Source: an uncultured delta proteobacterium (lineage in GTDB: Bacteria > Desulfobacterota > Binatia > UBA9968). From it: a DNA stretch of 64,000 nt. The DNA lies in NCBI GenBank assembly GCA_963847445.1, contig CAWJZV010000008.1:64001-128000 (forward strand). The letters are read 5' to 3'. Made by a program: the position numbers and the translations under genes. Positions 43,862-57,165 of this stretch are shown in pieces. Below the pieces are notes generated by a model. The model made no database searches. It was given only the letters and a program-made list of their open reading frames with translations, and was not told the origin of the DNA. The first letter of the stretch is position 1, and every line of letters begins with the position of its first letter.

Positions 43862-45002
43862 ATGCTGCAAGGTTATCGTCTGTTTGACGCCGATGCTCAT
43901 GCGATGATGAGCCCGCGCATGTGGAAGACCTTGCCGCAAGAGTTCGTGGCGCGCCGGCCGCGGCCGACGCGGGTGCATGACATCGCTGACATGGGACGGT
44001 GGACCAACGGTTGGTTGGTCGAGGGACAAATCATTCCCCACGCGTTAGGCCCTGGCAGCCAACCCGGCAATGAACCGGCGCGGGTGCTCGAAGAGTTCGG
44101 CGCCAAGACCCACAGTCCGGAATTTCCTCTCAGCGGTTTCGATCTATCCGACACCGGCGCGCGCCTGCGCGGCCTGGATTACATGGGCATCGATCACCAG
44201 ATGCTCTATCCGACCACGCTCTATGCGCGCATGACCAACGATCCGGCGTTCGAAGCGGCGCTGATGCGCTCGTACAATCGTTATGTCGGCGGCCAGTGCG
44301 CCGCAGCGCCGCAACGGCTCAAGTGGGCCGGGCTCTTGCCGCTGCGCGACGCCCGTCAAGGCTGCGCAGGCGTTGGCTGAGATGAAAGAGCTGGGCGCCA
44401 CTGCCGCCGTGGTTTACGGCACCGCCGGTGACCGCTTGCTGTGTCATCCCAGTTTTACTCCGGTGTGGGATGAGTTCGCTCGATCCGGTCTGCCGTTGTG
44501 CGTGCATATGGGCATGAGCTATCCGCCCTTCGCCGATGTCTGCAATGGCCTGCTCGCCGCCCATGGCATCGGCATGAGTCTGCCGGCACAGATGGCGTTT
44601 GTCGCCATCGTCGGCCATGGCATGCTCGACCGCTATCCGAATTTGAAAGTCGGCTTTCTCGAATTCGGCGCCGAGTGGATGCTCTACATGGTGCCGCGCC
44701 TCGATCACTACCTGCCCATCGACCGCAGTCAGATGCCGATCAAAACCGAAGTGCCGCAACGCGCCGTTGAAGAGTACGCCAAGTCGGGCAGGATTTTCAT
44801 CGCCGGCGAAGCCGACGATAAATTACTGCCGCAGGAAATCGAGCTGCTCGGCGAAGATCAGATTCTCTACTCCTCCGACCTGCCCCACGGCGAAGGCCGC
44901 CACAACGCCGCCAAGGAAATCATCGCGCGCAAAGATATCAATGAAAGACAGAAGCAGAAGATTCTCTACGACAACGCGGTCAACTTTTTCGGCGAGCCGT
45001 GA
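43862..45002 (+). CDS. Amidohydrolase family 2 (frameshifted)
   Basis: FDADAH, LDRYPNLKVGFLE, SSDLPH, KILYDNA. Confidence 0.88.
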
Positions 45003-45043: not shown

Positions 45044-45683
45044 ATGGAGCAATCTCCCAACTCGCTCGACAAGATTATTGCCGCCCAAGCGATTCGCAAG
45101 GCCGAACGCCATTTGGCCAAAGCCGACCCGATCATGAAACGGCTAATCGCCAGGCATGGTCACTGCCCCATCGCCGAGCGCGAGTTCGAGCCGTTTCATA
45201 TGCTCGCCAACTCGATCATCAGCCAGCAGCTTTCGACTAAAAGCGGCGGCGTCGATCAAAGTTCGTGTCGGCGCTCTCGTCGGCGTGCCGTTTCAAATCG
45301 GCAAGGTGCTTTCCATCGCGCCGGCGGAATTACGCGGTGCCGGACTTTCGGGGGCAAAGACCCGTTACATCGGCGAGCTTGCGGCGCATGTCAGTGACGG
45401 CAGGTTGGACTTCGAGGAAATCTTGTTCCTCAATGACGAAGCTGCGATTGAGAAACTGGTTATAGTTCCCGGCATCGGTCGCTGGACCGCGGAGATGTTT
45501 CTGCTGTTCGGCTTGAAGCGATTGGATGTCCTCGCCATCGGTGACGCCGGGTTGCAACGAGCCGCGCGAAATCTTTACGGCAAAAAGCGCAGTTCAGCTA
45601 CATTGTTGCCGCTGGTTGCGGAAAACTGGCGGCCGTATCGGTCGATTGCGTCGTGGTATCTGTGGCGGTCTTTAGAAGACTGA
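45044..45683 (+). CDS. alkA: DNA-3-methyladenine glycosylase II (HhH-GPD), frameshifted
   Basis: IISQQLS, GLSGAK, PGIGRWTAEMFL, DVL..GD, WRPYRSIASWYLW. Confidence 0.88.
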
Positions 45684-45843
45684 AGGTTATGCCGTTTATT
45701 ACCCGTAACCTTGCATACCGAGCCCTTGAGCCCCGTCTTCTCATTGTGGGAATTTGTTACGGGTTGATTAATCAGATTACACTGTAGTAATTAGACACGT
45801 TCGCCCGTTCACAAATTACTGCCTAACCAAACTGGTGACGTTC

Positions 45844-46401
45844 ATGACTTGGCAAAATTCTGATCTAGTTGTCTACCACGGAAGTGACGAAGTATCAGCA
45901 AATCGAATACGTAAAACGTCAATGACTTCGCAAAATGGGATAGACCTTAAGCTATGTAAACCACGTACGGACTTTGGCCGAGGATTTTATACTACAACAA
46001 ATTTACACCAAGCGCGGAACTGGGCAAATCTGCGTGCGAAGAGATTAAACGCTGCGAGTGCTAACTCCGCTAGAGCAACGGTAATACAATTCAGTGTTAA
46101 GCGGGATGAATTTACTCGACTGAATACTTTGTGCTTTGTCACTGAAGGTTTGAATCCTGGGAACTCCGACTATTGGGAGTTTGTCAGTAGTTGTAGGAAC
46201 GCAACGATCTCTGACCATCAATTTAAGCCCGACCCAGCGCTTCCTGCTACGTCTAACTATGACGTGGTAATTGGGATCGTATCCTTATGGCCGCAGACGT
46301 TAGTTGTTAAGGATTGCGATCAAGTAAGCTTTCACACTCCTAAAGCAATCACGTTCCTCCTTAGTCCAACACTTATTTTAACTGGGAATCCTTATCTTTA
46401 A
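45844..46401 (+). CDS. DUF3990-like protein (ADP-ribosyltransferase-like fold)
   Basis: VYHGS, GIDLKLCKPRTDFGRGFYTTT..QA.NWA, YWEFV..CR, YDVVIG, QVSFHT. Confidence 0.8.
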   Translation: MTWQNSDLVVYHGSDEVSANRIRKTSMTSQNGIDLKLCKPRTDFGRGFYTTTNLHQARNWANLRAKRLNAASANSARATVIQFSVKRDEFTRLNTLCFVTEGLNPGNSDYWEFVSSCRNATISDHQFKPDPALPATSNYDVVIGIVSLWPQTLVVKDCDQVSFHTPKAITFLLSPTLILTGNPYL

Positions 46402-46424
46402 CCAAATTACAGGAGAACAGTAAC

Positions 46425-46700
46425 ATGCCAATAATTGATTCTTCTATTCCACCTATTCAGATCGACGAATATTGGTATGTTGTCCGAAAGACTGTGGAGG
46501 AAGTGTTTAACTGTAAGGACACCTCCGGTGTCGATAGGCTACGAACTGAAATACTTCGAAGCAAAGCGGATGAGCAGATATTGTTCTACCATGCTGAACC
46601 ATTAGACGTGGCAGCGGATCTTTCAGGCAAGTCTCCTGGAGAAGAGGAGATCAAAAAATACAATCAACTAGTTGAAAGGCATCGCAGATCGATACCATGA
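46425..46700 (+). CDS. Small helical hypothetical protein, probable partner of the DUF3990 protein
   Basis: RBS AGGAGA; begins 23 nt after the DUF3990 stop; motif LFYHAEPLDVAADL. Confidence 0.7.
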   Translation: MPIIDSSIPPIQIDEYWYVVRKTVEEVFNCKDTSGVDRLRTEILRSKADEQILFYHAEPLDVAADLSGKSPGEEEIKKYNQLVERHRRSIP

Positions 46701-46738
46701 AGGTGTTCAGCAAGGAAAACCGAGTCGTAATAAGGAAA

Positions 46739-47713
46739 CTAAAGTAAAAATTCGCTTGATTCCAAACGTTCGTCGAGGGGGAGTTCCAAAATTTCCCGCA
46801 AGAGTTCTGTTCGAAGTACATCCGACGAAGTCGTGATTGGGGCGTGAAATGCGTATCGTGTTTTTAAATAAAGAGGCAATCCTTGTTCAATACGTGACGC
46901 ACGTACCACAACCTGATACTTTGTGCTATCTGGCGGTAAATTGGCAATATCGCCCTGAATGATCATTGTTTCCCAACCTACACCTCCCAACCTCCCGTCA
47001 GCTTTCTGTTTATACGCTTCGTCGCTTACAATTATCACTTTATGCGCCAACGCCAATTCGTTGCACATCCATTGGGGAAGATCCATACCGCGTCTAAGAT
47101 TAAACTTGTCTAGCCTCGCTTGAATACCTTTGTCTATCAGAAAGAGAGCAAGTTCTTTTACCCATTCCACCGATTCTTCCGTTTTAGAGGTATGGCTTAT
47201 GAATACTCGTATCGACTCCCGAGGTTTGCCCTCGATTGTTTTTCGGATTCCTTGAATCCGATCATAAACTTCTTTGTGTAATACGTGGACGATAAGGCTC
47301 GCGCTGTTTTTCTCTATACTACCAAACCCACGATGTAGTGCTGACAGTGCCTTTTGACTCTGAATACCCCCAGCGCCCGCCCCAAGTAATGGTGCTGCAA
47401 TAGATCGAACTGACGGCTGCTCACTTGCAAACTCGCCAAGAGTCTTACCGATTAGCTCGATTGCATCGACTGTTGACGACATTCCTTCAACAGACGCTGC
47501 ATAGGCAACGAACTGTGCAATATTTTCACCGCCTTCGAAAGGTAATATTTCGACCTCCCCGAGAGCCATTCCCTCCTTCGGGTGAGGGATAGAATAATGT
47601 TCCAATGATCGGGCAACAAAACGAGTGACGGTTCCGGCGGAAGAGCATGGTAGAACGATCAAGTCGGACGGTCCATCAAAAAGATTGCCGAGTCGCACTT
47701 TTACGTACGCCAT
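46739..47713 (-). CDS. Macrodomain-SEFIR/TIR fusion protein
   Basis: N-half VRLGNLF..DLIVLPC..G...SIAAPLLGAGAGG (macro). C-half RVFISH..WV.ELA..L...GI...LD...G.DL..WM...YKQKADGRLGGVGWE (SEFIR/TIR). Confidence 0.85.
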   Translation of the reverse strand: MAYVKVRLGNLFDGPSDLIVLPCSSAGTVTRFVARSLEHYSIPHPKEGMALGEVEILPFEGGENIAQFVAYAASVEGMSSTVDAIELIGKTLGEFASEQPSVRSIAAPLLGAGAGGIQSQKALSALHRGFGSIEKNSASLIVHVLHKEVYDRIQGIRKTIEGKPRESIRVFISHTSKTEESVEWVKELALFLIDKGIQARLDKFNLRRGMDLPQWMCNELALAHKVIIVSDEAYKQKADGRLGGVGWETMIIQGDIANLPPDSTKYQVVVRASRIEQGLPLYLKTRYAFHAPITTSSDVLRTELLREILELPLDERLESSEFLL

Positions 47714-48041
47714 GCGTATACCTCGAAACTGGTTTGGTGATTATTAGCACTTGATACGGAGACATCCTTTTTGGCAACGTGTTCCGCTCGTTTCGACTAA
47801 TCCCATACCGCAAGTCCCACGGAGTACTCATCTCGTGATTCGTCATTGCCTAATGTGGTTTCAGGTTCTCTGTCTAGGCAAATCGCACGCACAAGAATTC
47901 CGAACGATTTTTCAACCTATCAGCCAGAAAATATACTAGATGCGTTGAAGATCATGCAAATATCAAAACCCCTAGAAGTGGCTTCCGGGGAAACTTCTTG
48001 TAAAGCAAGCGTAAATTTCTTTGGGAACTCGGGTTTAGTTT

Positions 48042-48854
48042 CTACTTCCGATCTTCCGGCTTGACGTATTTCACCGTGCCGCCGCCTTTTTGCGAGTGCA
48101 GGTAGCCTTCGACGTCGTTCAATGGATTGGTGTAATAGCGCAGGCGGTGTTGCACCAGGTCGTCGGCGCGCAGCGCCATGTCGAAGGGCAAATCTTTTTG
48201 CATGTAAGCGGCGATCTTAGCGTTCTCCAAGGTCGGGCCGTTGCGGCTGGCGAGTTCTTTCGCCAGGGTGTCGACGTAGCTGTCCAAGTCTTTTTCCGGC
48301 ACGACGTCGGAAACTAAACCGACGCGCTCGGCTTCGACGCCGGTCAGGTTTCTGCCGGTGAGCGAAATAAAGAAAGCTTTCTTGAACGGGATTCCCGCAT
48401 GAAATAGCGACGGTGTCGCGGTGGCGCCGTAGCTGCCGCGGATGACTTCGGGCATGCCGAACTTTGCCGTGTCGGAGCTGATGACGAGATCGTGACCGTT
48501 GATCATCGCCAGACCGCCGCCCAGGCACCAGCCGCGCACTTTGGCGACGGTGACTTGCGGAAGTCTACGCATGATGTCGACGATCTCGGCGACGCCGCCG
48601 AAGCCGCGGGTGCGGCGCCGGTTGTCCTGGCCGCGCATGTCGTAGAGATCGCGGCCCGAAGAGTAGGAGTCGCCGGCGCCGGCGGTGACGATGCAGCGAA
48701 TTTTGTCGTTGTTCGCCAGCTCGCGCAGGGTGGTCGCGATCTCGGCGAGCAGGGCGACGCTCAGGGCGTTTTTCTTTTCCGGCCGATTGAAGGTCAGCCA
48801 GGCGATGCCGATGTTTTCGTCGATGTTGGCGGTGATTTGTTTCAGGTCGGACAT
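48042..48854 (-). CDS. Enoyl-CoA hydratase/crotonase family (hydroxycinnamoyl-CoA hydratase-lyase-like)
   Basis: NRPEKKNALS, SGRDL, GWCLGGG, FGMPE, EAERVGLV. Confidence 0.88.
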   Translation of the reverse strand: MSDLKQITANIDENIGIAWLTFNRPEKKNALSVALLAEIATTLRELANNDKIRCIVTAGAGDSYSSGRDLYDMRGQDNRRRTRGFGGVAEIVDIMRRLPQVTVAKVRGWCLGGGLAMINGHDLVISSDTAKFGMPEVIRGSYGATATPSLFHAGIPFKKAFFISLTGRNLTGVEAERVGLVSDVVPEKDLDSYVDTLAKELASRNGPTLENAKIAAYMQKDLPFDMALRADDLVQHRLRYYTNPLNDVEGYLHSQKGGGTVKYVKPEDRK

Positions 48855-48876
48855 TTAACTTCTCCGTGGGTTTAGT

Positions 48877-48916
48877 TTCGTTCAAATCGTTCAATAAGTT
48901 CAAGCCGTTCAAATCG
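48877..48916 (+). repeat. GTTCAA-core short tandem tract
   Basis: gttcaaatc gttcaataa gttcaagcc gttcaaatc (9-nt period); related tracts at 31420-31502 and ~50075-50103. Confidence 0.65.
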
Positions 48917-48932
48917 TCGGTCGAATGCTAAA

Positions 48933-48998
48933 CTGCCATTTCGAGATGAAGCCGAGAAATATTTTCGCATAGATCTCTCACTTCGTTCGAGATGACAG
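48933..48998. repeat. Inverted-pair palindromic element (TGTCATCTCGA..GAGAGATCT type)
   Basis: CTGCCATTTCGAGATGAAGCCGAGAAAT pairs imperfectly with AGATCTCTCACTTCGTTCGAGATGACAG. Confidence 0.6.
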
Positions 48999-49020
48999 CA
49001 TTGGCAATGACGACTTTCTA

Positions 49021-50029
49021 TTAAGCGAACCGGTAAAAATTTTTGGCGTTGCCGGCGAGGATTTTTTGCTTGGTCTGGTCCGAGATGTCTTTGCGTTTGA
49101 CCACCTGGCTGACGCTGTGCGGCCACTCCATGTCCCAGTGGGGATAATCCGACGCGTACATCATGCACTCGTCGCCGAACTGTTCGATGACCAACGGCAG
49201 CGCCGACTCTTCGCCTTCGCAGGTGAAGTAGCAGCGGTGGTCTTTGATGTACTCGCTGGGGAGCATTTTGAGCGGCTCCATCTCGGCTTTTCTAATCAAA
49301 TATTTCTCGTCGAAGCGCTCCATCCAATAGGGCAGAAAGCCGACGCCGGCTTCGAGAAAGCCGACTTTGAGCTTGGGGAAACGGTCGAGCACGCCGTTGG
49401 AGATGACTCGAGACCACCGACAGCATCTGTTCGAACGGGTGCGAAGTCATGTGCACGCCGATGTATTTATGAAAACGGGTGTTGCCGACGGCGACTTGGG
49501 CGGTGGCGTGAAAGCCGATGGGCACGCCAAGGTCCTGCGCCGCGGCGTAGATCGGGTCGAACTGCGGCTGGCCCAAGTCGAGGCCTTGCTGCACGTAGGT
49601 CGGCATCATGACGCCGACGGCGCCTTTCTCGGTGACGGCGCGGCGGACTTCTTTCGCCGCTTCAGCCACGACTTGCGGCGCGATCACGGCGGCGTACTTG
49701 ACGCGACCGCCGCTTTGTTTGCAGAAATCGGCAGCCCAGTCGTTGTAGGCTTTGGCCAGTTCCACGGCGAGGTCGAGTTCGCGCACGAGTCCGATGGCCA
49801 GCGCGTTACTGGGATAGGCGACCGCGTCGCCGATCTTTTCGACGTCGAGGTCTTGGCAATACTCGGCCGGGTTGGCCGGCTTTCTGCCGGTGGTGTCATT
49901 CAAAAAAATGTCCCAACCGAAGGATGGAAAATACGGCCCGCTGCGGATGCGAAACTTTTCCGGCAGGTATTGTTTATAAGCCGCGCCGTCCAAGTGATGG
50001 GCGTCGGCGTCGATGATGGTGAACTCCAC
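49021..50029 (-). CDS. Amidohydrolase family 2 (frameshifted)
   Basis: IIDADAH, AYNDWA, LDRFPKLKVGFLEAG, ASDYPHWD, KILAGNA. Confidence 0.88.
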
Positions 50030-55427: not shown

Positions 55428-57165
55428 ATGGCACAAGCAGGGAACAATAATTGGGATCTCGAAGCCGACGTCATCGTCATCGGCTCAGGCGCGGCGGGCT
55501 TGCCGGCGGCGATCAAAGCCGTTGACAATGGCGCATCGGTGATCGTGGTCGAGGCGAATTACGACGTCGGCGGCCACGCGATTCTCAGCGGCGGCCATAT
55601 GGCCCTGGGCGGCGGCACCAGCGCGCAGAAGAAATATAATATTCCCGACTCGCCGGACACGGTGTTCTCCGATCTCACCGATTGGTCTATCGTTCAACCC
55701 AATGGCACGCCGGACTTTCGCTACAACGACCGGGCGGTGATGCGCGCCTTCGCCGATCACTGTGCCACGGCGTTCGAGTTTTTACTGGCCAATGGCGTCG
55801 AGTTCGCCGATAAGGCGCCGGACAATCAAGGCGCGTCAACCACCGGCAACTCGGCGCCGCGGGAAAATCATGCGATTTGGAGCAAAGGCGCGGGGCTGGA
55901 GAGCCCCAACGCGGCCAACGGCACCAGCGTGATCCGGCCACTGGAGGCGAGCGCGCGGGCCAAGGGCGTCAAGTTTTTGCTCAATTACAAAATGACCAGC
56001 CTGATTCGCGAGCCGTCGTCAGAGAAAAATCCCGGCCACGTGATCGGCATCGACGCGCAGTACAACCCGCATATCATGCCGGGCGCGACCGCGCCGCTAA
56101 AGAGTTTTCGCTCCGAAGGCAACATCGACAGCAGCAAACCGACGATGAAATTGCGCGCGCACAAGGCCGTCATCGTCGCCACCGGCGGCAGCACCAGCGA
56201 CGTAAATTTCCGCCGCATGTTCGATCCGCGCTTGACGCCGGAGTTTCAGGTTGGCGGCGAGCCGTACAGTTACCAAGACGCCAGCGGTGAACTCGCCGCC
56301 ATGGCCGTCGGCGCTTCGCTGTGGGGGTTGGTCCATCAGGCGCTGGAGAACGGCGCGACCATGCGCTCCCAGCGCGCCCTGGCGACCAAATATAACTACA
56401 CGACCTGGAAACTTGAGAGTCCGATCTTCCCGTTGGTGAAGTCAACGGGTTTCAACGTCAAAGACTGGCAGGATTTGATTCTCGTCAACCAAGTCGGCCA
56501 GCGGTTCTACGACGAGACCAAGGGCGATCCGCCGCACGGCAACCATGGACATGCAATATCCGGATTGCACGCCGAACGATTATCGCAACGCGGAAAACGT
56601 CAAGTACAATCCAACCCGATACAATTTTGTCAACGCGGCGTTGGCGATGAACGCATACTCCGAGCCGCCGGATTACTGTCCCGGGCCGCAGTGGGCGATC
56701 TTCGACGCCGACGCGGTGGAGCGCGAAGGCTGGAAGGTGGTGCCGCCCTACGTCGATCCCGATGGTTATTTTTTCTCCGGTAACACCCTCGGTGAACTCG
56801 CTGCCGCGATCAAGAATGAATATCAAGCCAAGCCGATGAGGGGGGAAGTTTTGCAAGCGACCGTCGAGCGTTACAACTCTTTCGTCGACGCGGGTGTCGA
56901 TGCCGACTTCGGCAAGCCCGCGCCCAAGTACAAAATCCAAAAGCCGCCGTTCTACGCCGCCTGGGGTACGGTGATCGTCCATGATACCCGCGCCGGTTTG
57001 CGCATCAACGCGCGCTGCCAAGTGGTCGACATGAGCGGGCAAGTGATTCCCGGACTTTACTGCGCCGGTGAATCGGCCGGCGGTTTCAATCAGCATGGCA
57101 TGGGCCGCTGCGTCACCCAGGGTTATATTTGCGGCAGCGACGCGGCGAAGCTGCCGCGACGTTAG
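55428..57165 (+). CDS. FAD-binding oxidoreductase (fumarate reductase/KstD flavoprotein family), frameshifted
   Basis: DVIVIGSGAAG, GGHAILSGG, VIVATGG, ILVNQVGQRF.DE, GLRIN, IPGLYCAGE. Confidence 0.88.

Follow-up and report, generated by a model that had tools for sequence, protein, structure and literature searches.

The 64,000-nucleotide stretch of contig CAWJZV010000008.1 analysed here (hereafter, the window) belongs to the metagenome-assembled genome of an uncultured delta proteobacterium and contains, at 45.8-47.7 kb, three intact open reading frames (ORFs), ORF1 and ORF2 on the plus strand and ORF3 on the minus strand, located in a low-GC islet between two GC-rich host genes. A first-pass annotation, produced by a model from the nucleotide sequence, had noticed this AT-rich three-gene islet, and the coordinates, the GC content and the GC content of third codon positions (GC3) agree with its description. 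It had also combined the three genes into one candidate defence circuit. The results presented below point elsewhere: the islet probably consists of two independent, horizontally acquired cassettes of the defence type that share only the insertion site. Cassette A is the pair of ORF1, a DUF3990 protein, and ORF2; cassette B is ORF3, a fusion of a macrodomain with a SEFIR domain (macro-SEFIR). Each cassette belongs to a sizeable uncharacterised family that is kin to a known or candidate system. The main features are as follows.

45678..48045, no strand: foreign low-GC islet, bordered on either side by the 3' end of a convergent host gene (from GC, GC3 and flank alignments)
45844..46401, plus strand: ORF1, DUF3990 protein, putative toxin; 185 amino acids (aa) from ATG, 188 aa from GTG at 45835
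46425..46700, plus strand: ORF2, putative neutraliser and partner of ORF1; 91 aa (from synteny and a complex model)
46739..47713, minus strand: ORF3, macro-SEFIR protein; 324 aa
47234..47713, minus strand: N-terminal macrodomain of ORF3, aa 1 to ~160 (from PDB profile search, VIA-align and the Gly-rich loop)
46766..47218, minus strand: C-terminal SEFIR domain of ORF3, aa 166-316 (from Pfam, PADLOC, PDB profile and invariant residues)

Co-occurrence of the islet genes in other genomes

If the three genes formed one system, as the first-pass annotation had proposed (a writer, an inhibitor, and a reader or eraser fused to SEFIR), their homologs would be expected to travel together, and that annotation had itself named a lack of co-occurrence of the two transcription units elsewhere as a result that would refute it. 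We collected 70 loci of ORF3 relatives (one genome per species, up to 10 kb on each side, six-frame ORFs) and searched these with a hidden Markov model (HMM) of 120 DUF3990 homologs and, using phmmer, with ORF1 and ORF2. None of the 70 loci yielded a match; as a positive control, the same HMM matches ORF1 of the window at 4.9e-82. In the reverse direction, no ORF3 relative is present in 130 DUF3990 loci (80 metagenome and 50 viral contigs), in all of which the HMM found the DUF3990 gene again (130/130). Furthermore, PF13151, the Pfam family DUF3990, is absent from all 10 whole genomes carrying macro-SEFIR that were searched, and no DUF3990 gene was found in the 89 other genomes of the window's family. 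The caveat of the first-pass annotation, that the convergent orientation might reflect two independent cassettes, agrees with this survey.

The single three-gene circuit, in which DUF3990 would write ADP-ribose marks, ORF2 would restrain it, and the macrodomain of ORF3 would read or erase the marks and trigger SEFIR, has a coherent domain logic (DarTG joins an ADP-ribosyltransferase (ART) to a macrodomain, and Macro domains of type II Thoeris are described as reading ADP-ribose (ADPR) signals in a preprint, 10.64898/2025.12.03.692087) and the adjacency of genes with GC3 values of 0.39, 0.39 and 0.42 in a single low-GC islet in its favour, but we rejected it as extremely improbable given that the two units are convergent, each is found whole elsewhere in the absence of the other, no gene is consistently next to ORF3, and the units do not co-occur at any locus or in any genome surveyed. 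Adjacency within one islet is no evidence of a shared circuit. The similar GC3 of both cassettes does count against full independence: joint arrival is possible, and a functional connection confined to this locus therefore keeps a low probability. The cassettes may have reached this variable intergenic spot together or in turn.

Other parts of the first-pass annotation fared better. The domain calls (an ART-type DUF3990 protein, a small partner and a macro-SEFIR fusion) agree with Pfam, PADLOC, PDB profile and VIA-align results, and the quoted motifs are indeed in place, VYHGS and GFYTT in ORF1 and GGVGWE in ORF3. Each cassette also partially matches a PADLOC entry, ORF3 the bacterial SEFIR system (bSEFIR, 1.2e-35) and ORF1 the PDC-M13A and PDC-M13B models (6.5e-14 and 4.3e-16, respectively).

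The DUF3990 gene and its downstream partner

ORF1 is a member of Pfam family DUF3990 (E-value 4.7e-15, 56 bits against a gathering cut-off of 32.2), which Pfam is reported to place in its ART clan (PMC7955679). Beyond the PADLOC models, it matches phrog_14664 at 3.3e-5; matches of the islet proteins in PHROGs are only to families of unknown function, and in NCBIfam, none of these proteins comes near a cut-off. The AlphaFold (AF2) model of ORF1, built from a 40-sequence alignment, has a mean predicted local distance difference test (pLDDT) value of 86.9 and a predicted template modelling score (pTM) of 0.85. Compared with 48,161 chains using VIA-align, this model is closest to ParT (Z 8.8, 139 residues aligned, root-mean-square deviation (rmsd) 3.6), followed by diphtheria-toxin-like structures (Z 8.3-8.6; the catalytic domain, 8.3), exotoxin A (Z 8.5), MbcT (Z 7.2), the RES toxin (Z 6.8) and the RhsP2 tip (Z 6.7), with DarT reaching only Z 4.0. 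The top 50 rows are almost all ART-fold proteins; 7 chains score Z>=8, and the 35 chains with Z>=5 are nearly all ARTs. Residues that are invariant in 40 sequences of the family include H12, G13, D43, Y49, Q56, W60, R118 and D159, and two of these, H12 of the YHG motif and Y49 of the GFY motif, map to strands 1 and 2 of the model. As modelled, ORF1 has an ART fold, putatively of the H-Y-E kind that is typified by diphtheria toxin, PARP and ParT.

ORF2 starts 23 nt downstream of the ORF1 stop codon, with an AGGAG motif 9 nt before its ATG. No match to ORF2 was detected in Pfam, PADLOC, NCBIfam or PHROGs; a word-indexed search found only 4 relatives, and Atlas returned unnamed clusters at 0.87 or below. 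Iterative searches starting from ORF2 brought out a much larger family: a profile of 23 members retrieved 1114 cluster representatives at E<=1e-3, with 379 still retained at E<=1e-10. The majority measure 85-130 aa, and none of the 63 representatives sampled passed a Pfam cut-off. In 400 other genomes sampled from the phylum, with 12 candidates scored per genome, the profile found no member at 1e-5. Of the 27 DUF3990 loci closest to ORF1, 25 have a gene of the ORF2 family immediately after DUF3990 and in the same orientation; of the two exceptions, one contig (L089) ends 163 bp after the DUF3990 gene, and in the other (L097), DUF3990 is part of an Rhs fusion followed by a different small ORF. 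In one locus (L079:714-1682), DUF3990 and an ORF2-family domain are encoded in one continuous 323-aa frame, which is either a natural fusion or a sequencing error.

Structure prediction for the ORF1-ORF2 complex supports binding of ORF2 to ORF1. The median score over 3 runs was 0.71, compared to 0.20 for the best of 3 controls; the mark passed is attained by 58 of 80 complexes of solved structure and by 2 of 110 mismatched pairs, although the calibration is only rough for the custom alignments used here. The runs shared at least 88% of the contacts, and the pLDDT of the partner was at least 86. In the modelled interface, aa 52-62 and 65-68 of ORF2, which include the conserved YHxEPxxVAxDL motif, are placed on D43, Q56, W60, R118 and V146 of ORF1, residues that are invariant in the family.

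The closest candidate system is PDC-M13 (DUF3791 - DUF3990 - DUF3791-like), one of the PDC systems, which are untested candidates obtained through 'guilt-by-embedding' according to a preprint (10.1101/2024.01.29.577857). The islet resembles PDC-M13 in that ORF1 matches its DUF3990 models and a small gene follows the DUF3990 gene immediately. It differs in two respects. First, PDC-M13 includes an upstream DUF3791 gene, whereas neither the islet nor any of the 27 closest loci contains one. Second, the downstream small gene of PDC-M13 is DUF3791-like, whereas ORF2 has no PADLOC match, and none of 8 ORF2-family members tested matches the PDC-M13 models. The two partner types are mutually exclusive between clades of DUF3990. 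In 103 more distant DUF3990 loci, no ORF2-family gene was found, whereas DUF3791-type small genes accompany DUF3990 in 82, on both sides in 74; in the 27 closest loci, the corresponding counts are 25 for the ORF2 type and 0 for the DUF3791 type. In samples picked from the 103 loci, all 9 upstream ORFs belong to Pfam DUF3791 (2 with an added helix-turn-helix (HTH) domain), 5 of 5 upstream ORFs match the PDC-M13A models, and 10 of 11 downstream ORFs match the PDC-M13B or PDC-M13C models. Profile-profile comparison of the ORF2 family with the DUF3791-type partners using hhalign was negative (0.7% and 3.4%). Within these distant loci (L098-L200; for example, L135:4157-5181), the small proteins flanking DUF3990 are distant paralogs of each other (hhalign 93.6%). 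Because distant DUF3990 clades use DUF3791-type partners, cassette A appears to be a partner-swapped variant: most likely, a two-gene relative of PDC-M13 that would act as a toxin-antitoxin-like pair, with a putative target and a putative defence role.

The ART-fold pairs ParT-ParS, MbcT-MbcA, RES-Xre and DarT-DarG share with cassette A the ART fold, the two-gene layout and, as far as the model goes, a partner placed on a conserved face, but ORF1 does not belong to any of these families at the sequence level, and the searches run showed no relationship of ORF2 to ParS, MbcA, Xre or DarG. In Serratia, Rhs5 is described as carrying DUF3990 as its C-terminal toxin domain, followed by a small downstream ORF presumed to confer immunity (PMC4524185). 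In contrast to such Rhs toxins, ORF1 is a free-standing 185-aa protein lacking a delivery or repeat region. The L097 contig (1-6420) encodes an RHS-repeat protein whose frame runs off the contig and is at least 2140 aa long, with Laminin_G domains and a C-terminal DUF3990. The gene is followed by a 100-aa ORF without a family match, an arrangement that resembles a polymorphic toxin with its immunity gene. In the literature mentioning DUF3990 or DUF3791, we found no functional test of either.

In the proposed mechanism, ORF1 would use NAD+ to modify or degrade a cellular target, and ORF2 would bind over the conserved face of ORF1 and block its activity. An infecting phage or loss of the locus, for example, could upset the pair and release ORF1. 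The same data could be read differently, with ORF1 as an enzyme and ORF2 as its regulatory or substrate-like subunit, for example, a modifier of a phage or another mobile element that serves anti-defence or competition rather than a toxin-antitoxin pair. The more distant DUF3990 genes on 50 viral contigs, the PHROG match of ORF1, the enzyme-first gene order and the candidate status of PDC-M13 fit such a modifier, but the tight two-gene synteny, the partner that covers the conserved face in the complex model and the role of DUF3990 as the toxic tip of Rhs proteins whose genes are followed by one for immunity, in Serratia and apparently in L097, do not, and no phage genes flank ORF1 in the window; we consider this alternative unlikely.

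Several observations speak against a toxin-antitoxin-like interpretation of cassette A and temper it. The Foldseek matches of the ORF1 model, all to ART folds, are weak (best E-value 2.8e-3, to the diphtheria toxin catalytic domain), and VIA-align Z scores of 8-9 are barely above the range that the tool calls common. In the H-Y-E triad, only H12 and Y49 are assigned; the candidates for the third residue, D159 and Q160, lie on the strand 153-163. The pairing was counted from the side of the DUF3990 loci only. The complex score reflects model confidence, and with solved complexes of ART toxins and antitoxins in existence, the pass may come from likeness to these. Finally, the order toxin-then-partner differs from that of typical type II systems, in which the antitoxin gene comes first. 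If the assignment holds, DUF3990 toxins appear to have swapped partner families between clades, and the ORF2 family, which has ~1100 representatives and is not covered by Pfam, would constitute a new family of antitoxins or immunity proteins for ART-fold toxins.

The macrodomain-SEFIR protein

The two domains of ORF3 were identified by several routes. In a PDB search with a profile built from 46 members of the family, aa 2-152 match the macrodomain TTHA0132 (2dx6) at 1.2e-7, with macrodomains of alphaviruses, PARP9 and DarG next in rank, and aa 166-302 match the prokaryotic SEFIR structure 5y8e at 4.5e-37, compared to 1.3e-5 for the best TIR match. Pfam likewise gives SEFIR a stronger match than TIR (1.2e-10 versus 2.1e-8 for TIR_2). 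The PADLOC match to bSEFIR covers aa 162-316 of 324, corresponding to positions 37-188 of the 412-position profile. The structural model (pLDDT 86.1, pTM 0.58) contains the same two domains: Foldseek matches it to macrodomains, from an E-value of 5.3e-7, and to 5y8e at 8e-6, and VIA-align to 2dx6 (Z 17.8, rmsd 2.5, 152 residues aligned), AF1521 (Z 16.3) and the DarG macrodomain (Z 15.6), with 583 of 999 chains at Z>=8 and the rows shown consisting of macrodomains or designs built on them.

In the macrodomain, the Gly-rich loop P108-L-L-G111-x-G113-x-G115 (PLLGxGxGG) is invariant and aligns with PlLGtGvGgL of 2dx6; the first loop reads PCSSAGTVT in the window's clade and PCN..GGV in a Firmicutes clade. 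We regard the macrodomain fold and a capacity to bind a ligand of the ADP-ribose type as likely; hydrolysis of ADP-ribose, for which an Asn/GGV-type first loop or the Lys of DarG/TARG1 would be the signature, may be either retained or lost. In the SEFIR half, R169, S173, R200, D202, E219 (in QWMxNE) and G244-V-G-W-E248 are invariant across the 46 sequences, with E219, E248 and GGVGWE retained down to 30% identity. D202, in an RLD motif, aligns with the Asp of LDRW in 5y8e and is the putative equivalent of D40 in the NIO-1130 bSEFIR protein.

The macro-SEFIR family is large and strongly conserved. One search yielded 1110 homologs at E<=1e-3 among 4791 candidates, from many phyla; the best 119 are 324-341 aa long and 66-74% identical to ORF3, with sources including Geobacter, Paraburkholderia, Mesorhizobium, Pseudolysobacter, Collimonas and Caldilineaceae. 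We found no macro-SEFIR or macro-TIR fusion in the literature searched, with the limitation that the search did not extend to supplementary tables, such as the one in which Millman et al. list SEFIR homologs, where this architecture might appear. The gene has no conserved neighbour: the largest cluster of neighbours occurs in 8 of the 70 loci, at varying positions. Of 119 genes immediately adjacent to it, 14 match PADLOC models at 1e-8, among them TIR, SIR2, type IIG restriction-modification (RM), DRT and mad3; these 14 are spread over 12 of 66 loci. In 44 of 60 loci, the GC content of the gene falls 5 points or more short of that of its flanks, and in no locus does it exceed theirs by 5 points or more. 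Among the 89 other genomes of the window's family, a full-length ORF3 was detected in only one (G061; 69% identity), at another locus with unrelated flanks. A protein search of plasmids returned 130 records, none covering at least 80% of the query and with only the SEFIR part matching; a search of phages returned 2 records, again with matches to the SEFIR part only.

With bSEFIR, described for Bacillus sp. NIO-1130 by Millman et al. 2022, ORF3 shares a related SEFIR domain in a stand-alone, sporadic and horizontally spread gene. As stated in the preprint (10.1101/2022.05.11.491447), bSEFIR is a single-gene defence system whose D40A mutant no longer defends, and a second preprint (10.1101/2024.02.11.579819) reports that it depletes NAD+ through the SEFIR domain; by analogy, cleavage of NAD+ is the expected output of ORF3 as well. 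According to the former preprint, the authors required an N-terminal SEFIR, whereas that of ORF3 is C-terminal; moreover, nothing in ORF3 corresponds to positions 189-412 of the bSEFIR profile, and the macrodomain occupies the other half of the protein. Thus, ORF3 is an architectural variant of single-gene bSEFIR that fails two of its defining features. Because the rule that defines bSEFIR excludes this architecture, catalogues of defence systems may under-count or mislabel macro-SEFIR.

The second relevant system is type II Thoeris, which likewise combines a TIR-superfamily domain that processes NAD+ with a Macro domain that handles ADPR derivatives; its Macro domains are reported to read signals made by TIR (10.64898/2025.12.03.692087). 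Type II Thoeris has a separate TIR protein, whereas ORF3 fuses both domains and has a TIR gene as an immediate neighbour in only 1 of 66 loci; furthermore, the effector part of type II Thoeris is a membrane domain, which is absent from ORF3. In DarTG, the DarT toxin is encoded next to the DarG macrodomain antitoxin in one operon; in the islet, DUF3990 takes that position, in an orientation convergent to the macrodomain gene, and the DarG HMMs reach E-values of only 0.043 and 0.097, with a score of 11.9 bits where the cut-off is 250.

Most plausibly, ORF3 works like bSEFIR. Once activated, the SEFIR domain would cleave NAD+ to ADP-ribose and nicotinamide and abort the infection, and the macrodomain, in place of the bSEFIR C-terminal domain, would serve as a regulatory or sensor module that binds a ligand of the ADP-ribose type. 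Such a sensing or regulatory role is our leading candidate because in type II Thoeris, Macro domains read TIR-made ADPR conjugates. Taken further, and with little confidence, macro-SEFIR might be a self-contained sensor-effector whose macrodomain handles a molecule derived from ADP-ribose, either reading a signal that switches on the NADase, or binding or processing the ADPR that SEFIR releases. In the former case, it would correspond to type II Thoeris in a single protein, and what it reads could be the product of the SEFIR domain itself or ADP-ribosylation made by the phage; in the latter, NAD+ reconstitution by the phage (NARP1) would be starved of its substrate, which would make the fusion a built-in counter to phage counter-defence. 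The most attractive question concerns the role that the macrodomain plays for the fused, predicted SEFIR NADase; if these assignments hold, the fusion is a simple test case for control of TIR-superfamily enzymes by an ADP-ribose ligand.

We also considered that ORF3 is not an immune NADase at all, with the SEFIR domain being an interaction or scaffold module and the macrodomain, a housekeeping ADP-ribose hydrolase. Bacterial SEFIR was, indeed, first proposed as a general interaction domain (Yang et al. 2018, as cited in 10.1101/2022.05.11.491447), and for 105 of the 119 adjacent genes, PADLOC gives no match at 1e-8, but the invariance of E219, E248 and GGVGWE and the strong bSEFIR match argue against this reading, and because the distribution is sporadic and the GC content low, the gene fits a mobile accessory gene rather than a housekeeping one. 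On balance, a scaffold is a decidedly improbable role. The case for a bSEFIR-like immune protein is itself weakened by three observations: two hallmarks of bSEFIR, a SEFIR domain at the N-terminus and the C-terminal domain, are missing from ORF3; the number of defence genes among the neighbours comes without a background control; and in the window's clade, PCSSAGTVT replaces the first loop of the N...GGV type, so that ligand binding or hydrolysis may differ.

Two loci deserve separate mention. In Marinicella sp. W31 (L020:9409-11994), the macro-SEFIR gene lies on the same strand between two TIR genes, one ThsB-like and the other with a match of the TIR effector type, the only such case among the 66 loci. 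In a draft genome (L064:202-1222), the gene appears to be split, and the next ORF downstream matches the later part of the bSEFIR profile.

Boundaries and host flanks of the islet

The GC content of the region 45600-48200 is 0.43-0.49, compared to ~0.58-0.64 outside, and the GC3 values of the three ORFs contrast with 0.64-0.80 in five host genes. Within the islet, ORF2 and ORF3 are convergent, with 38 bp between their stop codons. The flanking host genes face the islet with their 3' ends.

45044..45683, plus strand: left flank, host HhH-GPD glycosylase gene (Pfam HhH-GPD 8.7e-7), split by a 1-bp insertion near 45238
48042..48854, minus strand: right flank, host enoyl-CoA hydratase gene, intact (Pfam ECH_1 4.9e-36)

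Both flanks are present in all 30 relatives covered by a DNA search, a count that includes G005, a genome flagged as unpublished, and their sequences align as far as 45676 and again from 48043; positions 48043-49500 are 96% identical to the relative G003. Among the matches listed in that search, none to positions 45677-48042 lies outside the window's own genome. Contigs of relatives assembled from public runs of three studies (X3, X8 and X9) diverge from the window at 45677, with identical continuation, and those of X8 and X9 rejoin it at 48046. From these two breakpoints, we place the insert at 45678-48045. What separates the glycosylase gene from the enoyl-CoA hydratase gene differs among genomes of the genus (loci L211-L218). 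In G015 and G006, the interval is ~300 bp long; in G003, G004, G014, G007 and G008, it carries genes for solute-binding proteins together with a gene for an isochorismatase or a low-GC gene for a CmcI-type methyltransferase; and in G009, it contains a PIN-domain gene. Judging from these alignments, the islet is an insertion at an intergenic spot of variable content.

Searches for signatures of the insertion mechanism and of regulation were negative. At the islet ends, we detected no repeats or target-site duplications beyond 12-nt pairs at the level expected by chance; a promoter and terminator scan found 3 and 3 sites, respectively, compared to 3.9 and 2.7 expected from shuffled sequences; Rfam gave no match on 45500-48200 at E<=0.1; and the islet DNA had no match to plasmids in distant mode.

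None of the public-run contigs listed bridges 45677 or 48046, a result that demonstrates neither the presence nor the absence of the junctions; in the absence of a bridging contig among those listed, the junctions derive from the assembly alone. This result, together with the properties of the source genome bin (7.19 Mb in 48 contigs, 91.8% complete, 6.91% contamination), would fit a chimeric assembly that places the islet where it occurs in no real chromosome. We consider a chimera very unlikely: the two junctions coincide exactly with the 3' ends of the convergent host genes, where content varies within the genus, and pieces from another public run (X1) that partially cover the islet are identical to it up to 48033, with X3, X8 and X9 giving no cover inside the islet. 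The conclusions on the gene families do not depend on the junctions in any case.

The first-pass annotation had also set the intact islet ORFs against surrounding genes 'riddled with indels'. This holds in part: 1-bp insertions relative to G003 at 44370, 45238 and 49408 each split a host gene (two amidohydrolase-type genes and the glycosylase gene), and an overlapping ORF pair at ~56553 marks a fourth split gene, at 55428-57165. The contrast with the islet is unremarkable. Four split genes in ~19 kb amount to roughly one per 4 kb, and we estimate the probability that the 1.8 kb of islet coding sequence stays intact by chance at ~0.6. Because an intact stretch of this length is expected at such a rate, the intactness of the islet ORFs is not evidence of selection, and we dropped selection as an explanation. 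The extra bases at ~44368 and 45236-45239 are absent from the contigs of three public runs, and the frameshifts at 44370 and 45238 may be assembly errors or strain-specific changes.

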